The notes under the pieces are model-generated. The model did no database searches. It saw only the letters and a program-made list of their open reading frames with translations, and was not told where the DNA came from. Shown piece by piece: positions 8,518-37,094 of a DNA stretch of 64,000 nt (positions are counted from its first letter, which is position 1; every line of letters begins with the position of its first letter). Source of the DNA: a virus (lineage: Duplodnaviria > Caudoviricetes). The stretch spans positions 1-64,000 of IMG/VR virus record IMGVR_UViG_3300032030_000033; one strand, given 5' to 3'. The position numbers and the translations under genes were made by a program.

Positions 8518-8955
8518 TTAATACCCAAAATAATTGTTTGTTTGAACACTTGCTTCTTTTTCTTGAACTGGAGTTGAAGTAACTTCAATTTCAACTTTTG
8601 GTTGTTCTACTTTTTCTGTTTTATCGCCAAATGTATAATCTATTGTTTTTTTATATAATTCCAAAGCGTTTTCTGCTGCCACTTTTAAAGCCTTAAAAAG
8701 TTCTACTTTTTCTTCTTCTGAAAATTGTATTTTTTCAGAGTTTTCTTCAGAGTCGCACTTACAACAACATGTCATTCCATCTGTTGCTAGTGAACTATCT
8801 GCTATTCCCATTGCAATTCTTTGAACATCTTCCATAAATCTCATAGACATTGCATTAAAAACATTTGACGCTCTTGATTTTACACTTTTTATTAAAAACC
8901 TATTTTTTAATTCTTCAGCAGAATTTGTGCTTCCTAAAATTTGTTCAATTGTCAT
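8518..8955 (-). CDS. Putative prohead core protein, paralogue A; C-terminal YFGY tag
   Basis: Helical; EEKVELFKALK..TIDYTFGD aligns with EDKADLLANLK..DINSLFGE of neighbour; AAGGAG SD. Confidence 0.5.
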   Translation of the reverse strand: MTIEQILGSTNSAEELKNRFLIKSVKSRASNVFNAMSMRFMEDVQRIAMGIADSSLATDGMTCCCKCDSEENSEKIQFSEEEKVELFKALKVAAENALELYKKTIDYTFGDKTEKVEQPKVEIEVTSTPVQEKEASVQTNNYFGY

Positions 8956-8964
8956 AATTACTCC

Positions 8965-9405
8965 TTAATAATTAAAAATTGATTGACCAGGCTTTTGTTC
9001 AATTACATGTTCTGCTGGTGTCTTTTTTTCATCTTTTGGATCATCCTGGGCTTCTTCTTCCGAAGCACCTTCTGGAGCTTTTGCTATTTCTTCTTTTTCA
9101 CCAGATTGTTTATCTACCTCAACAGAAGCTTGTTTTTCTTCACCAAATAAACTATTTATATCCGATTTCATTTTGTTATATGTTTCATAAGCCAAAGACT
9201 TAAGATTTGCTAACAAATCTGCTTTATCTTCATCTGGTAATTTTGAACTTAATATATTACTAAACTCATCCCTTAATTGCCAATCACAGTTAACACTTAA
9301 AGTATTAATTTTTGACATTGCTAGTTTTTTTATAATATTTGAGCTAATTGATGGTTTCTGAGTATTACCTTCAATTGCTTGTTTAATTATATCTAATGCT
9401 ATCAT
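8965..9405 (-). CDS. Putative prohead core protein, paralogue B; C-terminal IFNY tag
   Basis: Paralogue of 8518..8955; late motif at 9422-9428. Confidence 0.5.
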   Translation of the reverse strand: MIALDIIKQAIEGNTQKPSISSNIIKKLAMSKINTLSVNCDWQLRDEFSNILSSKLPDEDKADLLANLKSLAYETYNKMKSDINSLFGEEKQASVEVDKQSGEKEEIAKAPEGASEEEAQDDPKDEKKTPAEHVIEQKPGQSIFNY

Positions 9406-9437
9406 TTTAAACTTCCTAAAATTAACTTGAAACTTTA

Positions 9438-9508
9438 TAACTAACTAATAGTATTATGTAGAGCGGACATTTTTGTCGTGACTTACGACAATTTTGTCTG
9501 GACGGTGC
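9438..9508. repeat. 71-bp dispersed palindromic element, copy A
   Basis: TAACTAACTAATAGTATTATGTAGAGCGGACATTTTTGTCG-TGACTTA-CGACAATTTTGTCTGGACGGTGC; second copy at 41333-41403. Confidence 0.9.
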
Positions 9509-9514
9509 AACAAT

Positions 9515-9542
9515 AAAAAAGGCTGGGTATTTAACCCAGCCT
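9515..9542 (-). terminator. Rho-independent terminator
   Basis: AGGCTGGGT-ATTTA-ACCCAGCCT stem with T tract on the minus strand. Confidence 0.8.
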
Positions 9543-9562
9543 GTAATAAACCATTTAATAAA

Positions 9563-10648
9563 TTAGAAACTTAAGAGTTCTACACACTCTTTAACTGTTC
9601 CTACGTCTGTCGTTCCAGAATCTTTAGAAGTATCCAAAGCGTCTTTCAAAGCATTAATTTTTGCTACTAATTTTTCATCAGTAATTTTTTCAAGTGCTTT
9701 ATCAAGTGCTGATTTTAAAGCGTCTATGTCTTTATCCGAAGTTTCAAGAGAAGCGTCTGAATCTCCAGCACCTTCTTCTTCTCCCTCTTCTTCATACAAA
9801 GTTTTCATATCTGATAGATACTCATCTTCTGAAACAATGTCTTTAATGCTTTCAAGAATTGTTGCTTTGTTTTCATAAAGTTCTTTATCGCTAACCAATG
9901 TTAAACCAACAAATTCTTTAAATTCTACACCCTCTAATGCAAGAATTGATGAATTATTTGAAAGAAGTTCTGTCATAGAATAATCATCGCCTTCCATAAG
10001 ATCTCTTGCTGCACTAATGAAGTTTTCTTTAAATTCTTTATTTTTTGAAAGCATTGCAGCTTTTGATTTAGCATTAGAAACAATTGTTCTATCTGCATCT
10101 TCGTCAATAAGTGAAACTCTTATAGGGTTTTCCCAGTCAAAAAACTTAATAGAATTAGTAGGTGATTCCATAAGGTATTCTTTATATCTATTAAAGAAAG
10201 GCTTTTCTGTGATTTCTTCTAGCTCTTCATTAATTCCATAAAGCTCTGTATAATCTATAACATCATTTCTTTTTGATGCTAGAGCTTCTACGATACTATC
10301 GTTTAGTTCTGTGTTCATTGCTTCTGAATCATTTTCATAAGCTTCTGCAATTAAAGCAACGTCATAATTATCATCTTTAAAATAATTATTAATTGCTTCG
10401 TTAAGCTGTGAATTGTCGTTAACAATATCAACATTTTCATAGTTTTCGATTGTAAGAACTTTACCATCAAAGTTATAATCTGCTAAGTAAATAGCACCAC
10501 TATTATGGTCTGCTAAAAGAAGTTTATCGTTATAACTTTCAAGAAGAACCGCATTAGCAGATTCGTTAATCAAAGAGCGGCAAAGTTTTTCCAGATTTTT
10601 GTTACTGTATAGAATATAATTTGACAACTTACTGTTTGTAATCTCCAT
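9563..10648 (-). CDS. Acidic putative prohead scaffold/core protein
   Basis: Very acidic and helical, several (L/I)-x-E sites (LINES, LLES, INEE, LMES); downstream of portal; late motif plus SD. Confidence 0.4.
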   Translation of the reverse strand: MEITNSKLSNYILYSNKNLEKLCRSLINESANAVLLESYNDKLLLADHNSGAIYLADYNFDGKVLTIENYENVDIVNDNSQLNEAINNYFKDDNYDVALIAEAYENDSEAMNTELNDSIVEALASKRNDVIDYTELYGINEELEEITEKPFFNRYKEYLMESPTNSIKFFDWENPIRVSLIDEDADRTIVSNAKSKAAMLSKNKEFKENFISAARDLMEGDDYSMTELLSNNSSILALEGVEFKEFVGLTLVSDKELYENKATILESIKDIVSEDEYLSDMKTLYEEEGEEEGAGDSDASLETSDKDIDALKSALDKALEKITDEKLVAKINALKDALDTSKDSGTTDVGTVKECVELLSF

Positions 10649-10687: not shown

Positions 10688-10715
10688 TTGACAAAAAAGA
10701 ATCGCGAAATATAAT
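10688..10715 (+). promoter_or_regulatory. Sigma70-type promoter, leaderless
   Basis: TTGACA-16-TATAAT then 6 nt to ATG at 10722. Confidence 0.7.
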
Positions 10716-10721
10716 TTATTT

Positions 10722-10955
10722 ATGACTCGTGAAATAACATTAGAAGAAATACCAGAAATACATAGAAACACCCTAGCAGCTGCCGCTGCTCAAATAATAA
10801 AAAAACGCGGAACTTCTGCTTATGTTTCCGTACCCTCTGAAAGGCAAAACTTTTATTACATTCTTTGGGCTGGGCTAAATGCAGACCAGCAACTAGAAGA
10901 ATGTTATTTTTTATCAAATGATTTTGTTAGTCGAAATGTTTTAATTAACCGTTAA
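10722..10955 (+). CDS. Hypothetical early protein, opposite to the late strand
   Basis: Fills the gap between minus-strand genes and has its own consensus promoter. Confidence 0.65.
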   Translation: MTREITLEEIPEIHRNTLAAAAAQIIKKRGTSAYVSVPSERQNFYYILWAGLNADQQLEECYFLSNDFVSRNVLINR

Positions 10956-11375
10956 TTTTTCTAATGTTTTGATTAAATCAATAGATTTTCGTTTTACAAC
11001 ATTAAATCTTCCCTTGATAACATCAAGTTTTTCAATTTCAAAATCTTTTCTAAACTCTTCTTTTATTGATAAATTTTCAACAACAATTTTATTGTCATTA
11101 ACTGCTTTTACTGATAAAATGTCACCCCTTTCCAAATCCTTATAAATTTGAACAAGTTTTGACTTATCTTTTTTTAGCATCTCCTTGCTTTCTCTTGAAG
11201 TTGCAAACGGTGCCGTCATTTCAACACCTTCCAAAATAATGTTTTTTATTTCTCTCTTTTCGCTGGATTTTGGGTATTCCGTCCTTAAAGTTTCAATAAT
11301 GTCTCCTTCTTCTATGATTGGCAATTGCTTTTCGAGACGGTTTAAAATTTCGCAAATTGTATTTTTACTTTTCAT
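10941..11375 (-). CDS. Hypothetical protein, coupled to portal
   Basis: Starts 1 nt after the portal stop; 144 aa. Confidence 0.65.
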   Translation of the reverse strand: MKSKNTICEILNRLEKQLPIIEEGDIIETLRTEYPKSSEKREIKNIILEGVEMTAPFATSRESKEMLKKDKSKLVQIYKDLERGDILSVKAVNDNKIVVENLSIKEEFRKDFEIEKLDVIKGRFNVVKRKSIDLIKTLEKLTVN

Positions 11376-11376
11376 A

Positions 11377-13365
11377 TTATTTTAATTTCTTTGTTATTTC
11401 CTCTGTTATTAATCTTGATGACTTCTTAGAAGATGGACCAGTTCTTTTCTTTGGTTTACCATAAACTGAAAACTCTTTGTCAGTAAAGTTTAAACCTCCA
11501 AGCTCATTTTCATAATAGATAGAAGAAGCAACAGTATTAGTAGTTTCAGTAGAATCTTCAATTAATAAATCCTTTACTTTATTTAGGAATTCATTATTTG
11601 ACAAACTTTCTTCTACCAGCTGCTTTTCTTTCTGCTCTGCTACGCTTTTTTTATATTCTTCCAAAGCTGTCATTAATTTAGAATAATCTTCTTTATGCTC
11701 AATCAAGACATCTTTTCCAAATACTTTTACCATTTTTTCTGGTGTAAGTTCTTCAGTAACAACAGACATTGCTGGCATTGGAGCGGCTGGCATTCCACCC
11801 ATACCTATATCTCCACCCATTGGGGCTACTGGCATTCCACTCATATCTCCACCCATACCATTTTGCATAGCTGCTAACGAAGAGGCTTCTATATCTCTTT
11901 GAAGGTTTATATCTGCAATTTCCTTCTTTGACATTTTCATTACATATTTTAGAATAAAATCTTTTGGGAATAATTGTGTTCCAAGCATTGCAGAAATAAG
12001 GGTGATTTTTTGATTAAGGTATTCTATATCCATAATCTCTTTAACGTTTGAAGGAGGTGTTAATTCAAGTCTAAAATTTTTTAAATCCGCTTTTCTTTTT
12101 TTCTTGAAGAAAAGTTCAATAGCTGCAATTTTTGTAAGACCTTCTTCTATATAATACTGAATACGCTCAACAAATCTCGCAAATTTAACATCCTGCATAG
12201 CAAGAGAACCCTTTCCTGCCATAGAACCACCCTGGTCTGACGTAAAGCCTAAATACTCTGGTGGAATGTTGAGTGTCCATAAAAGCTCATCTCTAAAATG
12301 TCTAATGTCATCAATGTTATTTAAAGCAGTTCCTGGAGCAAGTGTTGTGATTTCTGTTCCCGCCTGTCCCTCTCTTGACATAACGAAATAATCTTGTGTC
12401 AAAGACAAAGCAGCTGCTTGCTTATTAATTCTTCCTTTATCATCCATTATTTGTGTAGAACGATAACTATCTCTAATTTTTGCAACTGCCCTATTTGCTT
12501 CACTTGTAGAAAGGTTTCCAACATCAATTTTAAAAACGTGTCTTTCTGGAACACGAGCAATACGATAAATCATCATGGCGTCTTCAAGCATTGTATATCT
12601 TCTATATGTTTGAATACCTGGATCTAGTAAAGAGCCGCCATATGGGGCAAATTTTTTATTTGCTATTTTAAAATGAATTATTTGCCAAGGTTGTAGCTTG
12701 TAAATTACTTCTTCTTGTTGCTTTTTATTATCTACACCTGTAGCATAATCATTATTAGAATCCAATGTTGTTTTATATGTATAGAAAGCAAGCTTTCCAT
12801 TTTTTTCAATTCTGTTTACTTTATGTGGTTCAAGATACCTAATTCTTGCAACCATTGTTGGGTGCTCATAATCATCTGGAATTACCTCATAAAAGTTATC
12901 ACCTTTTTTTGCAGTTTCAAAAATAATAGACCAAAGCTCTTTATTGAGATTTAATCTTTCGTGGAATAACTCTTCAAGAATGTCCTTTATATCTTCATCA
13001 TCTGAGTATACTTTTACAGTATCTCCATCTGTGTTTTTTTGACATGCATCGTCTGCTATTACTTGCAACCCTCTATGAAGAAAAGGACAAGAGTCCATTT
13101 CTTCAAAAGTTTCATAGTAATTATATCTATTTTCCTGAACGCCTTCGCCAGTTGTTAAAACATTATTTTGCTGACCGTAAGCATCTCCAAAATATTGATT
13201 TTCATAACCACTATAAGAATTAAGTGTTTGATTTAGTTCTTTTAAATCTTTTGGGGAAACCTCTATTTTTGCTGTTTCTGGAACCTCTTGCTGTAAATCT
13301 ATCTTCTTTTGAATTACTTGCGCAGCTCTATAATTTATGTTAACCTCTTTGCCATCTATAATCAT
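11377..13365 (-). CDS. gp20: Portal vertex protein (T4 gp20-like)
   Basis: MLEDAMMIYRIARVPERHVFKIDVGNL, QDYF..REG..GTEITTL.PG, IDDIRHFRDEL..LNIP, QDVKFARFVERIQ. Confidence 0.95.
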   Translation of the reverse strand: MIIDGKEVNINYRAAQVIQKKIDLQQEVPETAKIEVSPKDLKELNQTLNSYSGYENQYFGDAYGQQNNVLTTGEGVQENRYNYYETFEEMDSCPFLHRGLQVIADDACQKNTDGDTVKVYSDDEDIKDILEELFHERLNLNKELWSIIFETAKKGDNFYEVIPDDYEHPTMVARIRYLEPHKVNRIEKNGKLAFYTYKTTLDSNNDYATGVDNKKQQEEVIYKLQPWQIIHFKIANKKFAPYGGSLLDPGIQTYRRYTMLEDAMMIYRIARVPERHVFKIDVGNLSTSEANRAVAKIRDSYRSTQIMDDKGRINKQAAALSLTQDYFVMSREGQAGTEITTLAPGTALNNIDDIRHFRDELLWTLNIPPEYLGFTSDQGGSMAGKGSLAMQDVKFARFVERIQYYIEEGLTKIAAIELFFKKKRKADLKNFRLELTPPSNVKEIMDIEYLNQKITLISAMLGTQLFPKDFILKYVMKMSKKEIADINLQRDIEASSLAAMQNGMGGDMSGMPVAPMGGDIGMGGMPAAPMPAMSVVTEELTPEKMVKVFGKDVLIEHKEDYSKLMTALEEYKKSVAEQKEKQLVEESLSNNEFLNKVKDLLIEDSTETTNTVASSIYYENELGGLNFTDKEFSVYGKPKKRTGPSSKKSSRLITEEITKKLK

Positions 13366-17339: not shown

Positions 17340-17368
17340 TTGACAAAAAAATGTATATTATTTATAAT
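17340..17368 (+). promoter_or_regulatory. Consensus sigma70 promoter, overlapping a divergent late motif
   Basis: TTGACA-17-TATAAT followed by AAGGAG SD. Confidence 0.85.
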
Positions 17369-17386: not shown

Positions 17387-17569
17387 ATGGAAGAAAACGA
17401 ATATGTATTTAAGTTGTCAGTTAACGAGGTTAATAGATTAATAAACGCATTAAATGATCAAACAAACAGAGTTGTTTCAAAACTGCAAACTCAATTCGCA
17501 GAGCAACAGCCAAGGAAGATAGAAGATGAGAATGAGCTTCTAATGGAGGATAACAATGGCAACGCTTAA
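17387..17569 (+). CDS. Small coiled-coil hypothetical protein
   Basis: Strong SD, promoter, overlap with next gene. Confidence 0.7.
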   Translation: MEENEYVFKLSVNEVNRLINALNDQTNRVVSKLQTQFAEQQPRKIEDENELLMEDNNGNA

Positions 17570-18317: not shown

Positions 18318-19616
18318 TTAATAATCAAAAAAATTAGTTTCTTCTGTTACAACAGAAGCGTGAACTTTTAATTTGTTTACTATATCTGCATGCTTTTTAT
18401 CTTTGTAAGCTTTCTTTGTGTAGCCAACATATGGAGAATTAGGAAGTGCTATACCACCTTTCGCTGTTGTAAATAAATCATTTTGTGGAACTTGGTAATA
18501 GTTTCCACCAATATAAACAACTGGTTTTGTAGCTGCATTATTGCTGTTATGTGCACCAACACCATTTCCTTGTGAGTTTCCTCTTGAACCACGGAATACA
18601 ATTTCAATTTGACCTGCTTGTGGTTTTTTCTCAGTTGTCCATTTCTTTACCAATTCTTTAACATTTTTACAACCTTCTACTGGGCGTTCTGTCATTGTTG
18701 GAATATTTACTGCTTCGAGTTTTGCTTTTGAAGCCATATCCTGGAAAGTATTTGTATATCTACTTGAAACAGTTTCTCCCTTTGCTTTTCTTTCGGCATT
18801 TTCTTTATCTATCAACTGTTTAATAGAAGTTCCTTCTGGCTCTTCTCCTTTTCTTATTTTATCTCTAAGTCTTTCAGAAGCAGATGCAATTTCTTTCATT
18901 TTTGCATATGAAGCATCTTCTACTTCTTTATCTGCTTTTTTAAGTTTTGGGTCTCTTTTATCTTCACCATTTTCACCATGAACATTTGCCAACCAAGCGG
19001 CTTTATCTGTTCCATGTGGTGTGTTAAGTGGAACTGGGCTATCTGAGTCTTTGATATATTTGTCAAGCCCAAATCTCTTAGTGTTAAGAACAACATCTCT
19101 AACTGTGCTATTTCTTTCTACTTCATCTTCAAGGTCAATGTTCTGCTTACAATCTTTTACAAACTCTCTATAATAGTTAAGAGCACCAGAATTAACAGCT
19201 TTTGCTGCTGCAACTTCCTTAATTTTATTTGAAAGTTCGCTTGCGGCTTTATTAACTGCTGCTGGAACATTCTTTTCATTCATATCATGTCCATCTTCTG
19301 TTTGACAAGAGAGTGCTCTTTCTACTTTAAGAACTGCCAGTGCAAGCTCTCTTCTAAGTGTTTTTACTTTATCATATCTTGCAGCAATATCGCCAATAGT
19401 TGTGACTCCGCCTACTTTATCATAATCACTAACACGCTTAATATCTCTTGAATCAGCTGCCGCTCCTTTGTGTGCATCTTTTCTCGCCTGCTCTGCAGCA
19501 AATCTTGCAGCGACTGGGTTTGCCTTTGGTCTTGGATTTTCTCTTGCAAATTTTGCCAAGTCTCTATATGTTTGTGGGTCTTCTTTAACCGCTTCAAAAA
19601 TTAAGTCAATATTCAT
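18318..19616 (-). CDS. Basic, Ala/Lys-rich putative internal head protein; C-terminal FFDY tag
   Basis: Ends SVVTEETNFFDY; late motif at 19641-19647 plus AGGAG SD. Confidence 0.55.
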   Translation of the reverse strand: MNIDLIFEAVKEDPQTYRDLAKFARENPRPKANPVAARFAAEQARKDAHKGAAADSRDIKRVSDYDKVGGVTTIGDIAARYDKVKTLRRELALAVLKVERALSCQTEDGHDMNEKNVPAAVNKAASELSNKIKEVAAAKAVNSGALNYYREFVKDCKQNIDLEDEVERNSTVRDVVLNTKRFGLDKYIKDSDSPVPLNTPHGTDKAAWLANVHGENGEDKRDPKLKKADKEVEDASYAKMKEIASASERLRDKIRKGEEPEGTSIKQLIDKENAERKAKGETVSSRYTNTFQDMASKAKLEAVNIPTMTERPVEGCKNVKELVKKWTTEKKPQAGQIEIVFRGSRGNSQGNGVGAHNSNNAATKPVVYIGGNYYQVPQNDLFTTAKGGIALPNSPYVGYTKKAYKDKKHADIVNKLKVHASVVTEETNFFDY

Positions 19617-19640: not shown

Positions 19641-21569
19641 TTAACTTATGAGCCAAGAGTAAATACTTAAGGCGTCGTCCTCGAATGGTGTATTTATCAA
19701 ACCAAGATTTTCTTTAATTTTATCCATGGCCATTTCTTTCTTGTCCTCATAGGCACTGTCATATTCTTCATTATATCCACCAATAGAAATTTCTTTACCT
19801 TTATCATCTATAAAAGCAACTTTTTTATTATTTCCGTCTTTTGGTATAATTTGCCTAATTTTTGGTATATTATAAAGCAAAATAGCCATAGCCATTATAT
19901 CATCGTCATGCGAACCTTCCGTATGGTCTGGTCTTCCACCAGCCCAAACCCAAGTTTTCATTTGGTCAACAAGACGTTGAGAATGTGGATGGAATAGTGG
20001 CCAATAATCATCATCAGACATATAATCAATAAAGCAATCAGTAATCATTTCACGAGATTTTACTGTTGTCATCCAGCCAGTCCAAACCATAGTTTTATCG
20101 TGCTTATTGATTTTTTTCATTTTATACATATTTTCATAATTATAGCTGTAATATAATTCATTAAATACAGCTTCTCCAATGGAGTTGCATTCTACATAAA
20201 CATATGCATGATTATAAAATTTTGCAAGGTCGTGCACTAATCTCGAAGCCTCTTTTGTAGAAATTCTACCAAGGTATTCTGCAACCTGTTCGCCGCTATC
20301 TATATCAATTACTTGTATAGAAGTAGAGTCATCTGCTGTTCCTTTTGCAACGTCCATACCAACCCCATATCTGTGTCCCTTTTCTGGCAACAACCAATAC
20401 CATAACCCCTTCCAGTTTCTTGTTCCGAGATCTCCTTCTTTTACAGGGTTTAAAACTTTTTCTTGAACCTTTTCCAAAACTGTTTTTGAGAATACGGAGT
20501 TTCCCATTACAACGAAGTCTTGAAGGATTTCCTGACGGTATTTTACTTCACCAGAAGTTTTAAACTGATAAGCAAGCCAAGGGTTTTCTTTTGGTTTTTC
20601 TGCAATTGGTTTAAAGAATTCTTCTGCTTCTTTTTTTACAGCAGGATTATTCCAATAATCTCTATCTTCAAAATACTTTAATTTATCATTATAGCCTTTA
20701 TGTGGTGTAATTGTAGGGTAATCTGGACACATCCACCACTGAACATCATAAAGAACTGCCTCTGTCATTGGGTCATACCCACCGCAATTCTTTAATTCTT
20801 GAACCTGTTCGTAATAAAGTTGTCCTTCGCCAGTTGTTCCATTTGGTGTAGAAACTATAAATATAGGAGCACCCGTTTTAGCTGCAGATGGTACAACTGA
20901 AGAAACAATACCTTCGGCAATACCTTTTGTCTGATAGAAAGCAAACTCATCAAGTAAAAGTATAGTAGGTGAAGTACCACGACCAGCAGACTTAGATCTT
21001 GCAAATGTATCTATTTTTGATTTATTATTAAACTTACATCCTTTTTGATTATTTATAACATCTTTTACCCCAAGCCAAAAAGGGATGTTTTTAAAGTTGT
21101 CTTTAATTTTTTCATAAACATCTGTAGAAGATTTACCGTCTTTAGATATTACAACTCCCCATTGAGAATCAAAGAAAACAATTCTCCAAAAGAAAATCAA
21201 AGCCATAAGTGTAGATAAACCAGTCTGTCTTGATTTTGTTAAAACTACTTTTTTATGAAAAATAAAATCTTTTAAAATTTCTTTTTGATAATAGTATAGA
21301 TTACTTCCAGGAAGCTCACCAACGCCTGGGAGTGTAAATGAACAATACTTTGAAATAAAATAATATGGCGATTTTTTACATAAATATGTTTCTATACCAA
21401 CATCTATTAATTCTGAGGTTTTATCATAATAAACAGTTTCTACAAATTGATTTTTTGCATGCTTTAAACAATCATTAAAAGTAACATAAGTATTTTTGTC
21501 TTTCTTTATTTCGTAGTCTTTTATTTTTTTTAAAATAGACTCTTTAAATTTCCTTTCTTTTTCTGTCAT
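19641..21569 (-). CDS. terL: Large terminase subunit (T4 gp17-like)
   Basis: KSRQTGLST Walker A, LLLDEFAF Walker B, STPNG, GMDVAKG..DDS, VECNSIG, HDDDIMA nuclease motifs. Confidence 0.95.
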   Translation of the reverse strand: MTEKERKFKESILKKIKDYEIKKDKNTYVTFNDCLKHAKNQFVETVYYDKTSELIDVGIETYLCKKSPYYFISKYCSFTLPGVGELPGSNLYYYQKEILKDFIFHKKVVLTKSRQTGLSTLMALIFFWRIVFFDSQWGVVISKDGKSSTDVYEKIKDNFKNIPFWLGVKDVINNQKGCKFNNKSKIDTFARSKSAGRGTSPTILLLDEFAFYQTKGIAEGIVSSVVPSAAKTGAPIFIVSTPNGTTGEGQLYYEQVQELKNCGGYDPMTEAVLYDVQWWMCPDYPTITPHKGYNDKLKYFEDRDYWNNPAVKKEAEEFFKPIAEKPKENPWLAYQFKTSGEVKYRQEILQDFVVMGNSVFSKTVLEKVQEKVLNPVKEGDLGTRNWKGLWYWLLPEKGHRYGVGMDVAKGTADDSTSIQVIDIDSGEQVAEYLGRISTKEASRLVHDLAKFYNHAYVYVECNSIGEAVFNELYYSYNYENMYKMKKINKHDKTMVWTGWMTTVKSREMITDCFIDYMSDDDYWPLFHPHSQRLVDQMKTWVWAGGRPDHTEGSHDDDIMAMAILLYNIPKIRQIIPKDGNNKKVAFIDDKGKEISIGGYNEEYDSAYEDKKEMAMDKIKENLGLINTPFEDDALSIYSWLIS

Positions 21570-21630: not shown

Positions 21631-22716
21631 TTAATAGTTGAAGTAATTTACTTCTTCATTAACTGTTTCATTAGTTGCTTCTTTAGCGGCTTTTTTAGCT
21701 GCTCTGTATTCCTCTAAAGAAATCTTTCCTTTTTCGTAAAGTTCTTTAAGCTCTTCTTTAGATTTATTGGCAAATTTTTTAACAGCAGGCACTGCCTTTT
21801 TATAACCAGACTGTGCAGCGTTTCCAACTGCTTTGCCAGCTTCTTTTGTAGCATTTCCAACTGCTTTGCCAGCTTCTTTTGTAGCATTTCCAAAACTAAT
21901 GCCAGTTTCTCTTGTTTTTCTAGCTATTTCATTCTGTTTAGCATTAATTTCATCCTTTTTCATCTGATATTCTTGTGCTGCCTGTTTTCTAGCATCACTT
22001 TGTGCTTTAGCGTTTCTTACACCACCAACAACACCAGGAGCAGCCGCTAAAATTCCACCAGCAGCAACTCCAAGTGCTGCTTTTTTTAAACCATTAACGA
22101 ATTTTTTAGGGCCACCATTTTCCAATAAATATTGTGCTGTATCTTCTAACAAACATTTAAGTTCTTCGTTATCCATGCTTATACTCTCCATTATATAATT
22201 AACTTCTTCTTCGCTAAAATTTTCATCCAGATATGCTTTGATATGTTTAGTAGCAGGATGGTTATTCCAAGCTTTTACAAAACTTGTAGAAAGGTTTCCT
22301 TTACTGGCTCTTTCTTTTTCTTTTTTTGCTCTATATTCATTCGCTGCTTTTAGCCAAGCTTCCATATTTTCTTGACTGTTATAATCTGCAGCTGCCGAAC
22401 CTCTTGTTTGATGTTTAGCAGCCTGTGCTGCAATTGCTTTTTCTTTTGCTTTCTTTTCTTCTTCATCTTTTATTTTTTGAAATACTACTTCTCTTTTTTG
22501 TAAATTGCTTGGGTCATTTGCAATTTTATAAGCTGCATTTTTTGATAGACTTCCCATGCCAGCTCTAGCTAATCTTGTAGAAATCTGTCTTTCTGTAATT
22601 TTACCAGCAACATATAAATCAGTAAGCTCTTTTTTTAAATCTTCCCAATCCTCTTCTATAAGTTGATCATGCTTAAACCCTTCAGATAAAAGCTGGCATT
22701 TCATAAAATAGTTCAT
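21631..22716 (-). CDS. Putative internal head protein with Gly/Ala hydrophobic segment; C-terminal YFNY tag
   Basis: LLSE, LIEE, LLED, LLEN sites; ALGVAAGGILAAAPGVVGGV; ends VNEEVNYFNY. Confidence 0.55.
   Translation of the reverse strand: MNYFMKCQLLSEGFKHDQLIEEDWEDLKKELTDLYVAGKITERQISTRLARAGMGSLSKNAAYKIANDPSNLQKREVVFQKIKDEEEKKAKEKAIAAQAAKHQTRGSAAADYNSQENMEAWLKAANEYRAKKEKERASKGNLSTSFVKAWNNHPATKHIKAYLDENFSEEEVNYIMESISMDNEELKCLLEDTAQYLLENGGPKKFVNGLKKAALGVAAGGILAAAPGVVGGVRNAKAQSDARKQAAQEYQMKKDEINAKQNEIARKTRETGISFGNATKEAGKAVGNATKEAGKAVGNAAQSGYKKAVPAVKKFANKSKEELKELYEKGKISLEEYRAAKKAAKEATNETVNEEVNYFNY
21821..21893. repeat. Perfect 33-bp in-frame tandem repeat (GNATKEAGKAV x2)
   Basis: tttccaactgctttgccagcttcttttgtagca twice plus partial. 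Confidence 0.85.
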
Positions 22717-23397: not shown

Positions 23398-23862
23398 TTA
23401 ATAATTGAAGTAATTTACTTTTTTATTTTCAGTTAATTCCTCTAATACATCCTCGGTAATTGTAGAAGCTTGAATTTTTTCTCTAAATTTCTGAACAAAT
23501 GTTTTTTGTGCTGTTGGCGTTGCGGCATTTACAATTTCTTTTGGTATTACAAATCCACCACCATCATCATAATTAATCTGACAAGAGCCATCAGCTTTAA
23601 ATACTAAATCTGTAGTTCTAAAACTCTGTTTAGTTGCAACCTTGTCCCAAACACCTTTCTTTTTAAGATAGTTTACAACATTTGCAACACTACCTTTTGT
23701 ATTTTCTCTACGGGTTGCCAAATCTGCCGTCTTTGTATAAAGTTCATCTTTGGCTCCAGTTTTATCATAAGTAGTTCTCTGTTTGAGAGCATCAGTAACG
23801 GCCAAAGATTGTCCGTTTCCAAATTCTACATTTACTTCATTTAATATATCGTTAACTGTCAT
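23398..23862 (-). CDS. Putative internal head protein; C-terminal YFNY tag
   Basis: MTVNDILNE start; ends ITEDVLEELTENKKVNYFNY; leaderless late motif. Confidence 0.55.
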   Translation of the reverse strand: MTVNDILNEVNVEFGNGQSLAVTDALKQRTTYDKTGAKDELYTKTADLATRRENTKGSVANVVNYLKKKGVWDKVATKQSFRTTDLVFKADGSCQINYDDGGGFVIPKEIVNAATPTAQKTFVQKFREKIQASTITEDVLEELTENKKVNYFNY

Positions 23863-24581: not shown

Positions 24582-24962
24582 TTAATAAGGGAAATAATCC
24601 TCTTTGATTAAATCATTGTTGTTCACGACAACTGTATCTGCCGTAAAATAATCAGCCATTTTTGAATCTTTTGCTGGTGTAAAATGATTAAAAACTTTTG
24701 CATTTGGACCCATATCTACAACATTTTTAAAAACAATAACATCAAAATCTTTATATTTTCTTGCAAGTTCATCAGTATTAATTTTCCTCCAAGATAACCC
24801 CTTGCAATTAATTATTTTAACATTATCTGTTTCTATTTCTTTTTTTATTACATTATCGGAATAACTTAAAGCAACCAGTTTAGAAGTTGAAAACCACAAA
24901 CCAGTTCCGTAAGTTTTAGTTTGATGATAGTTTCTAATTCCTCTATATAAAGTTAGTTTCAT
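24582..24962 (-). CDS. ADP-ribosyltransferase-fold protein; C-terminal YFPY tag
   Basis: TLYRG...GLWFSTSKLVALSY...DVIVFKNVVD..VVV pattern of phage polyvalent-type ART domains. Confidence 0.6.
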   Translation of the reverse strand: MKLTLYRGIRNYHQTKTYGTGLWFSTSKLVALSYSDNVIKKEIETDNVKIINCKGLSWRKINTDELARKYKDFDVIVFKNVVDMGPNAKVFNHFTPAKDSKMADYFTADTVVVNNNDLIKEDYFPY

Positions 24963-26375: not shown

Positions 26376-28418
26376 TTAATAATTAAAGTATTTTACTTCC
26401 TCATACAAATCTGGTCTGTGAGTTGCTTGATTAATTGATTTCATGACATGAACTGGGAATCTTGTTCCAGGTTTTTCATTATCAAGATGTGTTAATCTAT
26501 GCGCCATATCTTTTCCGACTGTGTTTTCGAGCTGCTGTTTTGTTAATGTTTTGCCTCTGTTTTCTTTTTGGCTTTGGGCTTCTTGCTCAATTTTTCTTTG
26601 CATGTTTAATTTTCTATAATCTGGGTCTTTAATAAATTCTTTTTGAATTTCGATAGCAATTTTTTTACAAAACTCAAACTCTTCTTTTGAAAGTTTTAAA
26701 CAACCATAATTACCATAGCCAGTTATCAAAATAGCAGCATTCGCTTTATTCCAAGTAACTGTATCAGTAGCTTTAAGATTAGTTTCACCATCCAAGTGTT
26801 TAAAAATTACCGTAACACTTGAATTTCTCATATTAGGTGATAGTTCTTTTTCTAGCTCTCTTGTTGGGATAAGACTCAAATCTTTTACTAAGGTTTTACC
26901 ATACAATGCCTTAGTTCCCCACTCTCCAGTTCTTCCAAAATATGGAATATGAACGGCATTTAATCCTTTAAACAATTTAGATTTTCCAAAGTCTAATCTA
27001 GAGTTTATATTATCAACAAGTTTATCATGGTCTTCTTGTGATATATTTTCTGATTTAGTATTATATCTCTTCATCAAGCCATTTTTTCTATCTATGGCCA
27101 TTTCAGCTCTTTCTCTGCTTTTTGTTACACCGAAATCTTTTTGAGCAACTCTATATACATCATATTTTTCATCAGGAGTTAAGTCTTGAAATTTTTTAGT
27201 TTCCAAGATAGTTCCATCTACAAATGATTTTCCTTCTTTACCTAAAGTCTGTAAAACCATTAAGGCATCTTCTTTACCTTTTATAAAGTAAGCTGTTGCT
27301 TTATGTCTTTTAACATATTTTGTAGATACTTCTATTGGTTTTTTGCTTGTAAAATAATCAGAGAAAGAATCTCTAAAACTATCATAAGAAAAATTCAAAA
27401 TATCTTTTTTACAAATATTGTTATCTAGTTGTACTGTTGGGCCATATTTAAAATCACCTGGGCCAATTCCAACGTTATCTGTTTTTAAATAACCTTTCTT
27501 TTCTGGCGCACTAAGTGCTTTATTTCTTGATGTTTTATAATCTAACAGTGTTCTGCCATTTTTTGGATGTTTGATTAATTTTAAAAGATTGTCTGGGATT
27601 GGGTTTAAATCTCCAGTTGTAATTTTATCTCCCTTTTCATCATTTTGATCAAGGAATTCTACGCTATATTCTGTAAATGCAAGCTGATAAGATTTTCCAC
27701 TTTTCATATTTCTAATAATATAAAGTGGTCCAAATTGTGTATAATGATTATAATAATAATTATCGCATCTTGTACACCATTCGGTTGGTGTTTCTTTACC
27801 ATTTTTGATGTAAAAGGCTGCAGCCTTTTCTCCTTGAAATGAAGTTGGCTGTAAGAGTCTCCAAGTGCCGTCATTATAGAGGACTTTTACGTCTTGCATT
27901 TCTCCGCTTCCTTTTGATTTCTTTCCGTGATTTTCCTGTTCTCTTTGAATGTCTTTCTCTAATTCGTGTAATGTATCAATGCTTGCGGAGTCCCAGCTTC
28001 TTCTTTCCATTAAAGATTGGAAAGCTGGCATTTCTTTTACCCAAGGTTTTTTATAAGATTTAAGAATTTCATAAAAACCATCTGACTTTATAACATCAGA
28101 AAATAAACTATCTTCTGGATAATAATCTTCATAATCATCGTCATCATCGTCATCATCATTATTTAAGCAGTCTGTTTTTGATAATAACAATTGAACCCCA
28201 TAAGTTGTTTCTTTAACACCTAATTGTTCACATTTTTCAAAAAAGTGTTTTAATGTCTTCTTTAAAGAATTAGGATTTTTTTCTATTGCGGCTTTAAATG
28301 AGTTATTTACTTTTACACCAACTTGATTTGCTTTGATTGCTGACATTACTTCGTCAGCATTTGAAAAATTATATCCTTCTGTAAGTAATCTTCTATGTTT
28401 ATAAAGTATGCTGTCCAT
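26376..28418 (-). CDS. Large putative injected head protein; C-terminal YFNY tag
   Basis: LLTE-G propeptide; poly-Asp run; TEWCTR..YYNHY..GPLYII domain of a type common in large phages; ends LYEEVKYFNY. Confidence 0.55.
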   Translation of the reverse strand: MDSILYKHRRLLTEGYNFSNADEVMSAIKANQVGVKVNNSFKAAIEKNPNSLKKTLKHFFEKCEQLGVKETTYGVQLLLSKTDCLNNDDDDDDDDYEDYYPEDSLFSDVIKSDGFYEILKSYKKPWVKEMPAFQSLMERRSWDSASIDTLHELEKDIQREQENHGKKSKGSGEMQDVKVLYNDGTWRLLQPTSFQGEKAAAFYIKNGKETPTEWCTRCDNYYYNHYTQFGPLYIIRNMKSGKSYQLAFTEYSVEFLDQNDEKGDKITTGDLNPIPDNLLKLIKHPKNGRTLLDYKTSRNKALSAPEKKGYLKTDNVGIGPGDFKYGPTVQLDNNICKKDILNFSYDSFRDSFSDYFTSKKPIEVSTKYVKRHKATAYFIKGKEDALMVLQTLGKEGKSFVDGTILETKKFQDLTPDEKYDVYRVAQKDFGVTKSRERAEMAIDRKNGLMKRYNTKSENISQEDHDKLVDNINSRLDFGKSKLFKGLNAVHIPYFGRTGEWGTKALYGKTLVKDLSLIPTRELEKELSPNMRNSSVTVIFKHLDGETNLKATDTVTWNKANAAILITGYGNYGCLKLSKEEFEFCKKIAIEIQKEFIKDPDYRKLNMQRKIEQEAQSQKENRGKTLTKQQLENTVGKDMAHRLTHLDNEKPGTRFPVHVMKSINQATHRPDLYEEVKYFNY

Positions 28419-30187: not shown

Positions 30188-30667
30188 TTAATAAGGAAAG
30201 TAATTAGCCTCTTCTTTTAAATGCTTATTTGCGTATTGTGCTACAGACTCTATATCTTTTCCAGTTCTGTTTGGTTCTACGTTTGCATTTTTCTTTTGCA
30301 AAACAGCAATTTCAGCAATCCTTTTAAACAATGGGTCATCTTCTACATCTATAACAACTGGGTCATACCATTTTGTTTCCCAGCCGATACTATTAAGTAA
30401 TCTAACTATTTCAAATTTTTTAGTTCTTAAATTATATTCCAAAAAGTATTCATTACCTTTCCAGTCTGGCATCGTAAACTTTCCTTTGCTTTTAAGATAA
30501 TCAATAATTTTTTGGTTCATTCTCCAAGAAACCATAGTGGTTTTATTTTTAGAATAAATAGTGTCTCCACCATTATAGTCAAGACCATATTTTCTTAACT
30601 CTTTATCTAAGCCGATGTTTGATTTATATGTTTTTGCTTTTGTTTCAAATTGTCCTTCGTTAATCAT
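30188..30667 (-). CDS. Putative internal head protein; C-terminal YFPY tag
   Basis: MINE-G start, ends LKEEANYFPY; leaderless late motif. Confidence 0.55.
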   Translation of the reverse strand: MINEGQFETKAKTYKSNIGLDKELRKYGLDYNGGDTIYSKNKTTMVSWRMNQKIIDYLKSKGKFTMPDWKGNEYFLEYNLRTKKFEIVRLLNSIGWETKWYDPVVIDVEDDPLFKRIAEIAVLQKKNANVEPNRTGKDIESVAQYANKHLKEEANYFPY

Positions 30668-33496: not shown

Positions 33497-34768
33497 CTAA
33501 AATTTATAAACTTCTTTTTTTAACCCTTGTAGTTTTCCAAAATCTCCACAAAATAAACATTTAAGTTTTCCAAGTTCGTTGCTATCTATGTATTTATCGT
33601 CACCATATTCTATTTCTAGCTTTTTACTATTAAGAATATAAGCAATAGTTTTTAAGACAAACTCTGCCTCTAACTTTTGAAGTTCACAAAACATTTTTTT
33701 ATTTACATATCTACAGAAGGTCGCTGAACCACCACATAACTTTAAAAACTTACACTCAGGGCAATTTTCATCCATTGCCTCTTGGTATTTTTTTAAACCG
33801 CTTTCGAATTGATTGTCGACATATGCTTTCAAATCAAATCCATTTCTTAAATTTCCTATTGGTGGCTTATGCCCTATCGAATAATTACAATCGTAAATTT
33901 CTCCATCTTTATAAAAGCAAAGTGTTGAAAAGTCAATTGCACAGTAGGCAAACTTATCATTATTTAACAATTTCCAGCAAATATCGTTAGTTTTTATAAA
34001 GTTTAACCAAGCCCATTTTCCCTCTATAACTTTTTGATAAAACTTATCATAAAATTTTTTAAAATTACTTATTATTTTTTCAATGTTTACTGGCCTGTCT
34101 CTTAGTATATTAAATCTCACAAAACAAGCCCCTAGGCTTTTACACTCTTCTACAACTTCCCATATGTCTGTTTCTTCTGTTACCGTAATTTCAAGTTCTA
34201 CTTTAAAATTATTTTCTACTAATTTTTTTATATTATTTTTTACAACTTCTTGTTTATCTCTGTTAATTTTTTGATATTTTTCTCCATCATAACTAACCTT
34301 AAAAAAACTATTCATTTTTTTATAAGAAACAAGAAATTTTTCTAGTTGTAAATTATAGCCGTTTGTAATAAAAAGAACTTTAGAATTTGGAAATTCTTTT
34401 TTTATATAAAAAACAGTTCTTAAAAACTGTTCTGGGTTAATTATTGGTTCTCCAGTAAAACTAATTTGAAAACTTATTGGTTTATCAATATTAGATTTTT
34501 TTATGTAATCTACAATTTCTTTATAATCTTCAAAAATAAAATCTCTTGTTTTTTCTTTTACATAGCAATAAGAACATCTAAAATTGCAAGATGAATTTGG
34601 AGTAATTGTAAATACCACTCCGTCTTCTCTTCTTCTTTTTTCGTCTAACAACTTAAAATCCTCTTCTGGATTTATAATTGAATTTCCATTTTCCAAAATT
34701 AGCGAATTGTTTTTACTATAATAGACAGCTTTAAGTTCTGGTATTTCAAACTTTTCATCTATATTCAT
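33497..34768 (-). CDS. Radical SAM / SPASM-domain maturase-like enzyme
   Basis: CNFRCSYC, TGEP, TNG, SYDG; SPASM C...GEIYDC...IGNL...CPECKFLKLCGG..C..C. Confidence 0.9.
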   Translation of the reverse strand: MNIDEKFEIPELKAVYYSKNNSLILENGNSIINPEEDFKLLDEKRRREDGVVFTITPNSSCNFRCSYCYVKEKTRDFIFEDYKEIVDYIKKSNIDKPISFQISFTGEPIINPEQFLRTVFYIKKEFPNSKVLFITNGYNLQLEKFLVSYKKMNSFFKVSYDGEKYQKINRDKQEVVKNNIKKLVENNFKVELEITVTEETDIWEVVEECKSLGACFVRFNILRDRPVNIEKIISNFKKFYDKFYQKVIEGKWAWLNFIKTNDICWKLLNNDKFAYCAIDFSTLCFYKDGEIYDCNYSIGHKPPIGNLRNGFDLKAYVDNQFESGLKKYQEAMDENCPECKFLKLCGGSATFCRYVNKKMFCELQKLEAEFVLKTIAYILNSKKLEIEYGDDKYIDSNELGKLKCLFCGDFGKLQGLKKEVYKF

Positions 34769-35067: not shown

Positions 35068-35092
35068 TTTATTTTCCTTTTTAATTAACTTT

Positions 35093-35143
35093 CGGTAACG
35101 AATTAGAGCCTTCTTTCGAAGGCTCATTTCATCTCGTCGCGGC
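35093..35143 (-). other. GC-rich intergenic stem-loop (GAAA tetraloop) without U tract
   Basis: Minus strand GACGAG-ATGAAAT-GAGCCTTC-GAAA-GAAGGCTC-TAA-TTCGTT. Confidence 0.55.
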
Positions 35144-35156
35144 AAGAATTCTATAA

Positions 35157-35393
35157 TTAAAGAACTTCTGTTGGTGAAACGTGTGATTTAATTGTGAATG
35201 TTTTTTCTGCTGTAGAAACTTCTGTTCCATTGATTACTGGAACTTTTTTTGTTTCTGTTACTGCTTCGTCAATCTTATAAACCAACTCACCATCAAGAGC
35301 TTTCTTAATATTCTTCTTTGCCAAAGGACTTCTTGATTCTGTGTCGTAAGCGTATGAAACACCGTTTACTTCAAAATTCTGAATATTTGCCAT
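35157..35393 (-). CDS. Small putative virion protein, paralogue of the 31402..31935 N-domain
   Basis: Start set to MANIQNFEVNGVSYAYDTESRSPLAK..GELVY (AAGGAG SD, late motif). Confidence 0.65.
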   Translation of the reverse strand: MANIQNFEVNGVSYAYDTESRSPLAKKNIKKALDGELVYKIDEAVTETKKVPVINGTEVSTAEKTFTIKSHVSPTEVL

Positions 35394-35422
35394 GTTATTC
35401 TCCTTTATATTTAACTTAGTAT

Positions 35423-36220
35423 TTAGCAAGCAATAAAAGATAAACCAGATTGTTTGCCGTTCTTTTTACCATAGACTTCGTAGCCTATTCCAGGTTTAAA
35501 TGTAGTAACTGTTTCGTCGAAATCATCTACGTTAACAACTACTAAATTTCCATTTTCTATTTTTAATTTTGGATTTGGAATAAATCCATTATCACTCTTC
35601 TTATATTTATCAAAGTCCAAACCGCGCATTTTTCTTTCTTTTCTATCTTTGCTTTCTTGGAATCCCATAAAGTTATCAGACTCTTTTGATAATTGATACC
35701 CAGATTCTCTTCCGTATGGAAATGTAACCCAGTCTTCTTTTATAGTAATAGAAACAACTTCTTTATTCGCAACCTTCTTTTTCGAAAAAGAAGGAACGCC
35801 ATTTACAGTTGAAGTTGAAGCTCTAACAAGCTCAAAAACATCTCCATGATTTTCATCTGCCTCTGGAAATCTTAACAAATCATTACCAACAACACCGAGT
35901 TGTTCTGTAAGATAATCAAAATCGCCCTTTATTTTTCCTAAACCAGTTTGGTTTTCGTATTTATCATTACCAGCACCAGTATAATAATAATTATACTCTG
36001 GATACCCTTCAAACAAAGGAGTAGAAACGTCTCTTACAACTTCGTTTCCTTCTTCATCCAAAACTGGGTTTCCATTAACATCTAAAACCACTTTTGTCCC
36101 AGCATTATCTGTTAGTGGTTTTCCTTCTCCATCTACGCCAGATTTTTTTGTTAAAAATTTATTAGCATAACAAATAACCTGTCCGTCTGATAATGTTATA
36201 AGTATCTGTCCTCTAATCAT
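35423..36220 (-). CDS. Hypothetical virion protein
   Basis: GAGG SD; 265 aa within a late operon. Confidence 0.6.
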   Translation of the reverse strand: MIRGQILITLSDGQVICYANKFLTKKSGVDGEGKPLTDNAGTKVVLDVNGNPVLDEEGNEVVRDVSTPLFEGYPEYNYYYTGAGNDKYENQTGLGKIKGDFDYLTEQLGVVGNDLLRFPEADENHGDVFELVRASTSTVNGVPSFSKKKVANKEVVSITIKEDWVTFPYGRESGYQLSKESDNFMGFQESKDRKERKMRGLDFDKYKKSDNGFIPNPKLKIENGNLVVVNVDDFDETVTTFKPGIGYEVYGKKNGKQSGLSFIAC

Positions 36221-36230
36221 TTATTACCTC

Positions 36231-37094
36231 TTAGTATCCAAAATAACTTTTTTTGTCTTCAATCTTTTCTTCGCCAAAAATAAGCTTATTAAGAGCTTTA
36301 TTTGTTTTACATTCTTCTATAATTTTATTCATTGCTATTCCCTCTTGGGTATATTTATCTATATCTTCCCTAAGAGATTGACCTCTATCATAAATTGCTT
36401 GCAATTGTTTATATTTATTAAGCTCTCCACGTTTTTTAAGAGCTCTGATAAGTAAAGCAACAAGAGCAATACCACCAGTTGTTTTGAGAGCGAGCATTGG
36501 GTTAGCAGAAAGCCAAGCCATACCCTGTTTCATTATTTCGCTAAATGATTTTCCTTTAAGCCCACCGAAGAATGATTTTACCTTAAGAGGTAATGCTTTT
36601 AAGAAACCTGAAACTTTTGCCAACAAACCAGCACCAACTGGCACAGCAGCAGTTTGGGCACTTGCTAATTGAGCGGAAACATCTCCAACAGTTTTTGCAG
36701 CTTCTGCTTTTGAGCCTTGAATAATTGTATTCATTGTTCCCAATGCCTTTTGGCTTGCTAAAGCAGCTTCGTAAGTGTTAGCTCCTTTTGTTGCATTTAA
36801 TGTTTCAGCAGCCTGTTTTATTAAATCTGTATTTTTTGCCAAACTGTGTGATTTTGCAGCTTGCGCAGCATAATCTAAAATATATCTGTCATCTGCTGGC
36901 GTTTCCTCAATTGTTTGAACTTCTTCTTTAAAGTCCTCAAGTAAATCTGTGAAATGATCTAGTTTTACCTTTTTACCACATATTGTTGAAAATATTTCTT
37001 CGTAAATAGCTTTAGTTGTCTCTTCTCCAAACACCTCGCTATCATTTATGAAATTTTCCAAAAATATCTCTGGTGTATATCCTTCTAATTTCAT
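36231..37094 (-). CDS. Putative internal head protein with amphipathic/TM segments; C-terminal YFGY tag
   Basis: Acidic N-terminus with FLEN/LLED sites, Ala-rich helix, GGIALVALLI; ends IEDKKSYFGY. Confidence 0.55.
   Translation of the reverse strand: MKLEGYTPEIFLENFINDSEVFGEETTKAIYEEIFSTICGKKVKLDHFTDLLEDFKEEVQTIEETPADDRYILDYAAQAAKSHSLAKNTDLIKQAAETLNATKGANTYEAALASQKALGTMNTIIQGSKAEAAKTVGDVSAQLASAQTAAVPVGAGLLAKVSGFLKALPLKVKSFFGGLKGKSFSEIMKQGMAWLSANPMLALKTTGGIALVALLIRALKKRGELNKYKQLQAIYDRGQSLREDIDKYTQEGIAMNKIIEECKTNKALNKLIFGEEKIEDKKSYFGY

Follow-up and report, generated by a model that had tools for sequence, protein, structure and literature searches.

The window analysed here comprises the first 64 kb (64,000 nucleotides, nt) of a linear viral contig of 103,322 bp (IMG/VR record IMGVR_UViG_3300032030_000033, Caudoviricetes). 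Nine proteins encoded in it end in nearly the same four residues, [YFI]-F-x-Y, followed directly by the stop codon, and this C-terminal tag is the subject of the present analysis. Since the contig was judged 44% complete, the whole genome probably measures about 230 kb. Its G+C content is about 30% and the minus strand carries nearly all genes, including all nine tagged open reading frames (ORFs), which encode 126–680 amino acids (aa). A tenth tagged ORF is found further along the contig. Coordinates are those of the window unless the contig is named.

8518..8955, minus strand: tagged ORF of 145 aa, acidic, with a long flexible tail; ends in VQTNNYFGY
8965..9405, minus strand: tagged ORF of 146 aa, acidic, with a long flexible tail; ends in HVIEQKPGQSIFNY (SIFNY)
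18318..19616, minus strand: tagged ORF of 432 aa, rich in Ala, Lys and Glu, directly after the terminase gene; ends in VVTEETNFFDY
21631..22716, minus strand: tagged ORF of 361 aa with a conserved Gly/Ala-rich hydrophobic segment; ends in VNEEVNYFNY
23398..23862, minus strand: tagged ORF of 154 aa with tagged orthologues in two relatives; ends in LTENKKVNYFNY (NYFNY)
24582..24962, minus strand: tagged ORF of 126 aa, an ART-PolyVal-type ADP-ribosyltransferase domain alone; ends in DLIKEDYFPY
26376..28418, minus strand: tagged ORF of 680 aa, multi-domain, member of a paralogous family; ends in LYEEVKYFNY
30188..30667, minus strand: tagged ORF of 159 aa; ends in HLKEEANYFPY
36231..37094, minus strand: tagged ORF of 287 aa with a Gly/Ala-rich hydrophobic segment; ends in KIEDKKSYFGY
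contig 88298-88624, beyond the window: tenth tagged ORF, between the nrdD unit and the tail tube gene; ends in ENYFPY

Frequency and conservation of the C-terminal tag

With a simple longest-ORF gene call, the motif ends 10 of the 92 ORFs of the contig. The 10 internal matches in 33,539 residues lead to an expectation of 0.027 C-terminal tags by chance, and shuffling the last 30 residues of each protein 2000 times gave a mean of 0.042 tagged proteins with a maximum of two. Among the other stop-to-stop frames of at least 40 aa, one out of 668 ends in the motif. The codons of the tag vary synonymously (TAT or TAC for Tyr, TTT or TTC for Phe), its third position is occupied by Asn, Pro, Gly or Asp, and the DNA 3' of the stop codons, with its terminators and ribosome sites, is unrelated between the genes. 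Therefore, the constraint acts on the peptide and not on a DNA repeat. The AT-rich genome favours codons for Tyr, Phe and Asn, which is the point in favour of a tail that arose by chance or merely translates a DNA signal such as a promoter, terminator or repeat. Set against this are the ten tags where 0.03–0.04 are expected, the varying codons and flanks, the near absence from other frames and the retention of the tag across families down to 30–40% identity; chance or a DNA signal is excluded.

The nine ORFs of the original prediction were all confirmed with their coordinates, strand and quoted ends, the check it named, a count against shuffled C-termini, shows enrichment, and its claim of a constraint on the peptide rather than the DNA holds. 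It had further described the carriers as dissimilar apart from one pair, ORFs 8518 and 8965. In an all-against-all BLASTP comparison the tagged proteins fall into separate clusters; the general lack of similarity thus stands, whereas the pair has to be given up, its two members being separated as well. As for the targeting sequence of phage T4, one terminal peptide is common to several unrelated proteins of one phage.

Relatives, taken here as fragments of up to 65 kb from IMG/VR, JGI metagenomes and GTDB genomes (four of them fetched whole), also carry the tag. It was found on 6 of 94, 3 of 57, 8 of 21 and 0 of 21 ORFs in four related fragments, and more tagged ORFs occur in further JGI fragments. 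One of the three tags in the 57-ORF fragment, on a baseplate-hub homologue ending FFRY, is probably a chance match. Tagged orthologues are 27–67% identical, compared with 89% for the terminase, and nevertheless retain the tag. In a wider protein collection and with a slightly looser pattern, 55 of 66 homologues of the 680-aa protein are tagged. The same is true for 57 of 61 homologues of the tagged 361-aa protein, three more of which end WFNY or CFNY, and one orthologue of ORF 18318 ends NFNY. Within IMG/VR the tag looks confined to this clade, because a scan for E-N-Y-F-P-Y-stop returned only six contigs, two of which are relatives. The other four comprise two with an ORF (129 and 30 aa) ending in the exact tail and two with no such ORF.

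The site upstream of the tag and the identity of the carriers

Alignment of 27 tagged proteins at their C-termini gives Tyr (24 sequences), Phe (27), a variable residue (Pro in 14, Asn in 6) and Tyr (27), preceded by Asn, Ser or Asp. In 20 of the 27 a hydrophobic-x-Glu triplet is found with its Glu 0–4 residues before the tag, mostly at a spacing of 1 or 3. The same test is passed by 12.5% of internal positions and by 48 of 258 untagged C-termini. An (I/L/V)-x-E site had been claimed for six of the nine proteins in the window, which is about right: with the tails read by eye, seven of the nine have one within six residues of the tag.

The 680-aa family is particularly informative for the boundary between site and tag. 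In an alignment of 44 members the C-terminal half is nearly devoid of conserved columns save for the tail, and Glu673 of the Leu-Tyr-Glu site is invariant. This residue is kept even in four paralogues in which another peptide, RFRKLIxG, follows, and these paralogues stand beside tagged ones in the same genomes. Since the boundary Glu survives the change of tail, the motif seems to consist of two modules, a site and an exchangeable end. The RFRKLIxG end may be a second address or may mark a non-addressed version of the protein. Paralogues with this end keep the site as Met-Tyr-Glu (G001 59801-61744 and G003 11051-12988; P0033, P0034, P0037, P0047 and P0066). A faintly similar W-L-I/L-S/G is found at the end of the terminases.

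According to structural models, the two tails tested lie outside the folds and are disordered: residues 667–680 of the 680-aa protein have a predicted local distance difference test score (pLDDT) below 50, and residues 114–126 of the 126-aa protein form a coil beyond the fold. Such a tail might be an uncleaved linear motif that binds some other hub, for instance the sliding clamp, the partner pocket of a single-strand-binding protein, RNA polymerase, a chaperone or a host target after injection. Hub-binding tails generally look like this, with an acidic stretch, then aromatic residues and a free carboxylate, and the disorder in the models agrees with it. Furthermore, the spacing of 1 or 3 would suit one strand-like motif for binding, and the absence of the tag from some orthologues is common for accessory interaction motifs. 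In contrast, a Glu that stays invariant in front of a different paralogue tail suits a cleavage site better.

Family searches with PHROGs and Pfam gave nothing above the cut-off for the nine tagged proteins, nor did NCBIfam for eight of them (24582-24962 left out) and two others, nor Pfam for 44 members of the 680-aa family and ten tagged proteins of relatives. A match of ORF 21631-22716 to DUF3854 (21.4 bits, cut-off 23) lies in a low-complexity stretch and was dropped.

For one carrier, the 126-aa protein (24582-24962), profile similarity points to its nature. Taken alone it has no Pfam match at E-values up to 0.01, and phmmer against the PDB returned a chance-level row only. However, a search with its family profile retrieves proteins that match through ART-PolyVal domains, and hhalign matched it to ART-PolyVal (PF18760) over residues 14–87 with 98.9% and an E-value of 3.8e-17. 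Its model has a pLDDT of 86.2. The best Foldseek E-value is 0.08 and the best VIA Z-score 6.2 (root-mean-square deviation 3.5, 100 aligned), which is middling, and almost every top-ranking structure belongs to the ADP-ribosyltransferases or to related toxins that use NAD. Throughout 26 sequences, Arg7 and Ser25-Thr26-Ser27 do not vary; a third catalytic residue, an acidic one, was not identified. According to the available part of PMC5512222, ART-PolyVal supplies the transferase of 'polyvalent' proteins, for which injection together with the phage DNA is predicted, and T4 Alt is given as a packaged ADP-ribosyltransferase.

The 680-aa protein is less clear. Its family profile has no match in the PDB, and fold searches of its model against the PDB gave nothing clear (best Z-score 5.0). 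In a viral fold search the model matches uncharacterised myovirus proteins and, with an E-value of 2.2e-4, a protein annotated 'Structural protein' in the jumbo phage PA5oct, for which 93 virion proteins are reported from mass spectrometry. A lead to PcfJ was rejected: it was not confirmed by Pfam, and PcfJ-like rows appeared in the viral fold search only at E-values of 2e-3 or weaker. Taken together, the ADP-ribosyltransferase domain, the hydrophobic Gly/Ala segments, the low complexity and the fast evolution make the tagged set look like internal or ejection proteins.

Gene setting, untagged proteins and competing explanations

The tagged genes lie among the following untagged features, and the prohead protease gene is found further along the contig.

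412..972, minus strand: ORF of 186 aa with a likely T4-type N-terminal capsid targeting sequence (MKTFKEFYEE...INE) and a hydrophobic segment; C-terminus untagged
6643-8028: helicase, untagged
9563..10648, minus strand: scaffold/core candidate of 361 aa with 22% Asp+Glu, untagged; a strong terminator follows
10941..11375, minus strand: core-protein candidate of 144 aa, immediately following the portal gene; its [LI]-x-E density is the highest of the contig; untagged
11377..13365, minus strand: portal protein of the T4 gp20 family (Pfam Portal_T4, E-value 1e-73), untagged
16464-17330: first radical SAM protein, untagged
19641..21569, minus strand: large terminase subunit, untagged
33497-34768: second radical SAM protein (423 aa), untagged
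38688..39425, minus strand: gp55-like late sigma factor candidate (PHROG 234, E-value 4e-5), untagged
contig 74152-74796, beyond the window: gp21-type S77 prohead protease

In all relatives the tagged genes cluster upstream of the terminase gene and around the portal and scaffold-candidate genes, and in the window ORFs 8518 and 8965 are placed just after the portal gene and the acidic 361-aa ORF. The latter (9563-10648) has one of the highest [LI]-x-E densities of the contig, as in the T4 scaffold gp22. No family matched it in the searches made, and its scaffold role is putative. Searching the contig by phmmer with T4 head proteins gave a match for the portal and the protease alone, and none for gp22, gp67, gp68 or gp23.

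The window also encodes a polynucleotide kinase-like protein, a DNA methyltransferase, an HNH endonuclease and a glycosyltransferase, and the rest of the contig a baseplate hub, a tail tube, Hsp20 and Mre11/Rad50-like proteins. The portal shares only about 30% identity with its counterparts in a Microcystis phage and a Flavobacterium phage, the closest ones that have a name. A collection of phage records contained no DNA match to the region and no protein match to the 680-aa or the sigma-like protein. The phage represents a deeply branching, uncultured lineage of T4-like phages. The presence of NrdD, an anaerobic ribonucleotide reductase (contig 89154-91688, minus strand, beyond the window; Pfam E-value 6e-115), points to a host that is anaerobic. 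Three giant ORFs of 2490, 2248 and 1410 aa (44090-51562, 53685-60431 and 60478 to contig 64710, all on the minus strand) matched none of the families tested; relatives in another fragment are 30–38% identical across parts of them.

None of the enzymes that can be named is tagged: helicase, NrdD and its neighbour, the Mre11/Rad50-like proteins, kinase, methyltransferase, HNH endonuclease, radical SAM proteins and glycosyltransferase all have other ends. This also applies to the portal, terminase, protease, tail tube, baseplate hub, Hsp20, the sigma-like factor and the giant proteins of 1143–2490 aa. As the original prediction of a head-related tag implies, no protein that can be recognised as acting in replication, nucleotide metabolism or transcription carries the motif within the 44% of the genome covered, polymerase and clamp being outside the fragments. 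This bears directly on binding to a clamp or other hub, which had been put forward as the alternative. The nameable replication, recombination, nucleotide-metabolism and transcription proteins are untagged, including the gp55-like protein, which ends in KERLYSLI and whose T4 counterpart bears a clamp tail. In addition, the tagged genes cluster with head genes and the tagged set resembles internal or ejection proteins. The gp45 clamp (PF09116) was not found in the fragment, which represents 44% of the genome, and DNA_pol_B not in any of five fragments; with the clamp, clamp loader and DNA polymerase outside the part covered, a clamp as hub keeps some probability. Overall, the hub explanation is weakened, and we consider it unlikely, albeit with a share of probability that deserves attention.

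The S77 protease matches PF03420 with 58.2 bits (cut-off 27), and its His, Ser and Asp columns are conserved relative to T4 gp21. The prohead proteases of T4, phiKZ and SPN3US cut after Glu, as stated in the available part of PMC5694885. A hydrophobic-x-Glu matching the specificity of gp21-type proteases directly before the tag and a protease gene on the same contig would also be expected if the tail were itself a proteolysis signal, either a substrate or exosite of the prohead protease, which would then be the receptor, or a C-terminal degron that a host or phage protease reads and that limits protein lifetime. A second protease may be encoded nearby. The plus-strand gene 17556-18284, which is conserved in three genomes and adjoins the tagged ORF 18318-19616, matches Peptidase_C39_2 (papain-like) with 23.9 bits, just below the cut-off of 24 bits, and its position counts for a proteolysis signal. 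However, trimming 5–8 C-terminal residues would be purposeless unless the tail had acted earlier, and one degron on ten unrelated proteins would itself need an explanation. To our knowledge, no degron of this form has been described. Hence, a proteolysis signal is improbable. With the protease as receptor, this explanation would merge with that of a prohead-loading tag, because the protease is part of the prohead core in T4 according to the consulted part of PMC9958956.

The two radical SAM genes lie among the tagged genes. Conceivably, the tail might be the substrate motif of a modifying enzyme such as these, acting on its aromatic residues. Radical SAM enzymes that modify aromatic C-terminal peptide motifs do exist. 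Yet the first radical SAM gene sits in an insertion (13.4-17.3 kb) that is missing from a relative with six tagged genes, the carriers are not peptide precursors but folded proteins of 108–680 aa, no partner with a recognition domain was seen and no link beyond proximity was found, which makes modification of the tail very improbable. Two ORFs flanking the 423-aa radical SAM gene (31402-31935 and 35157-35429, minus strand) have the common start MANI(S/Q)(S/N)FEV(D/N)GV, and this short ORF recurs in a relative. The radical SAM enzyme may use them as peptide substrates.

The motif TAAGTTAAT(T/A) looks like a candidate for a middle or late promoter specific to this phage. Of its 35 copies on the contig, 29 are on the minus strand and 28 lie within 60 nt upstream of a start codon (examples are 13391, 21580, 23873, 28429 and 30678, minus strand). 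It precedes the genes of the portal, terminase, sheath candidate, protease and scaffold candidate as well as six of the ten tagged genes, and one copy stands 23 nt before the start of ORF 8965-9405. Since the motif often stands 11 nt before the ATG, leaving no space for a ribosome site, leaderless transcripts are suggested. The T4 late promoter TATAAATA is not enriched on the contig (21 copies against 14 ± 3.7 expected; 21 is attained in 5 of 100 shuffles). The only plus-strand genes of the head-gene block, 17556-18284 being one of them, are driven by two perfect sigma-70 consensus promoters (TTGACA, 16–17 nt, TATAAT) at 10688-10715 and 17340-17368, plus strand.

A proposed two-part address label and its counterparts in known systems

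T4 internal proteins bear an N-terminal targeting sequence of about ten residues that brings them into the prohead core and is then removed by gp21, as described in the parts of PMC7411985 and PMC9958956 available to us. In the T4 record, IPII and IPIII begin with MKTYQEFIAE and IPI with MKTFKEF...ITE. ORF 412-972 begins with MKTFKEFYEEETINE; its first seven residues are those of T4 IPI, followed by I-N-E, and its orthologue in a relative begins with MKTFKEYYEE. Judged from this likeness, the start of ORF 412-972 looks like a T4-type capsid targeting sequence in a very distant phage.

The start M-K-T-F-K-E-F was also found in at least 120 viral contigs of IMG/VR (loci L057-L136). In 78 of 83 matches read, it opens a frame of at least 50 aa, on unrelated proteins, and in most of the frames read hydrophobic-x-Glu comes next, followed by Ala or Ser. 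The T4 targeting sequence thus seems far more widespread than the T4 family. In the Flavobacterium phage vB_FspM_immuto_2-6A (L047, record 100-150 kb) two other N-terminal motifs, MKKSQLRxIIKE on four or five genes and MENxFDLKKFLVENKLT on four, are shared by genes located upstream of the terminase gene and around that of the portal; with their hydrophobic-x-Glu site, both resemble N-terminal targeting sequences specific to the lineage.

For the C-terminal tail we tentatively propose, at slightly less than an even chance, a cleavable tag for loading proteins into the prohead. The label would have the form [LIVM]-x-E, 0–4 residues, [YF]-F-x-Y-COOH, that is, a two-part C-terminal address. Its aromatic end and free carboxylate would dock to a prohead component (core, scaffold or inner face of the shell), and varied internal or ejection proteins, the ADP-ribosyltransferase among them, would thereby be enclosed. 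Subsequently, the gp21-type prohead protease could cut after the Glu and free the cargo from the scaffold, releasing a peptide of 5–8 residues able to leave the head. The original prediction of a cleavable cargo tag is partly supported, by the protease gene, the enrichment of the Glu site, an ADP-ribosyltransferase among the tagged proteins and the lack of tags on named replication proteins; docking, its receptor, cleavage and the presence of tagged proteins in virions are what we infer. When the final 40 residues of the 680-aa protein were co-folded with three partners (scaffold candidate, protease and 144-aa protein), the score was 0.00, which speaks neither for nor against docking.

Several observations weigh against a prohead-loading tag. 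The counts cover 44% of the genome, and a gp23 family search found no major capsid protein in the 103,322-bp fragment representing that share. The orthologues of ORFs 8518 and 8965 in one relative are untagged, and 7 of the 27 aligned tagged proteins have no nearby hydrophobic-x-Glu. A spacing of 1 or 3 would keep the Glu on the same face of an extended strand and fits a single, longer, uncleaved binding motif. Moreover, the Glu is often followed by Glu or Asp, whereas in the three T4 internal proteins read Ala comes after the first hydrophobic-x-Glu. Untagged kinase, methyltransferase, glycosyltransferase and radical SAM genes are interspersed with the tagged ones, and TAAGTTAAT(T/A) also precedes the nrdD, kinase and methyltransferase genes, so that co-expression does not discriminate. 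Finally, a T4-type N-terminal targeting sequence is already present and a second address is not strictly needed; given this sequence on ORF 412-972, the C-terminal tag would add to the T4 device and not replace it. It is plausible, at somewhat less than an even chance, that this clade of giant T4-like phages runs two independent protease-released labels, the ancient N-terminal one of T4 and a new C-terminal one of 5–8 residues in which Y-F-x-Y follows the Glu, the second of which would load a large and fast-changing set of injected effectors (an ADP-ribosyltransferase, membrane-active proteins and a multi-paralogue family of 600–700 aa).

The selection of proteins that a phage carries in its head has been worked out in detail for very few phages (T4, P1). 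Such proteins act in the host before any other viral molecule does and frequently oppose host defences. If the proposed function of the tag is true, the injected protein set of an uncultured clade could be read from sequence alone, and no shorter portable signal for capsid loading would be known. New effectors could be traced by means of the tag, and it would serve as a very small handle with which to pack foreign proteins into capsids; the hydrophobic-x-Glu site would tie it to chemistry conserved among maturation proteases of the gp21 and herpesvirus types. Should the tag bind another hub instead, it still marks out a large network of interactions in these phages that had gone unseen.

The closest counterparts are the targeting sequence of T4 and the herpesvirus scaffold tail. 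In T4 as here, a terminal peptide on unrelated proteins stands directly beside a hydrophobic-x-Glu, and a gp21-family protease is encoded; T4 packages Alt, and the tagged set here likewise includes an ADP-ribosyltransferase. In contrast, the T4 signal is N-terminal and about ten residues long, whereas the tag is C-terminal, extends 5–8 residues past the Glu and would need the free end. The two have no likeness in sequence and their order is mirrored, with the label preceding the site in T4 and the site preceding the label here. In addition, the function of the T4 signal was shown by reporter fusions, while the tag is known from sequence.

T4 gp21 has structural elements and catalytic residues in common with the herpesvirus protease, as the consulted part of PMC5694885 states. 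In herpesviruses, the final 25 residues of scaffold and protease-scaffold proteins bind the major capsid protein and are removed by a cut at the M site (PMC12474303, in the part available). Like the proposed tag, this is a C-terminal docking tail on more than one protein that is released just upstream by the maturational protease. However, the herpesvirus tail is longer, is confined to two overlapping scaffold products and has a site that is not after Glu, whereas here there are at least ten unrelated carriers and the scaffold candidate is untagged.

C-terminal peptides also target the HK97 prohead protease and load the cargo of encapsulins. For SPN3US, a C-terminal propeptide of the protease was proposed to bring it inside the HK97-fold shell (PMC7411985, in the part available). 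These three systems direct C-terminal peptides into an HK97-fold shell as well, but for one protein or one cargo class each, and they have neither the Y-F-x-Y form nor the Glu site; the encapsulin peptides stay uncut. Here, the phage's own prohead protease has an untagged C-terminus. Encapsulins are cellular shells without portal, terminase or tail, whereas the contig encodes a portal, a terminase, a tail tube and a baseplate hub. In phage P1, an N-terminal signal suffices to load the large anti-restriction effector DarB into the head, according to the consulted part of PMC9024508. This signal differs from the tag in being N-terminal, 30 residues long and present on one protein, with no motif common across cargo.

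Outside the capsid, the clamp-binding tails of T4 gp43, gp33 and gp55 and PIP-box-like motifs provide short hydrophobic or aromatic motifs at the extreme C-terminus of unrelated proteins that bind one hub. Here, in contrast, no carrier can be recognised as a replication or transcription protein, the tag is absent from the gp55-like protein and an invariant Glu site precedes the tag. In the literature on phage C-terminal targeting, packaging signals and conserved C-terminal motifs, with subscription journals thinly covered, we found no such tag described. If the prohead-loading function holds, the tag would follow the known principle of terminal, protease-released capsid addressing, but at the opposite end of the protein, in a much shorter form and across a tenth of the proteome.

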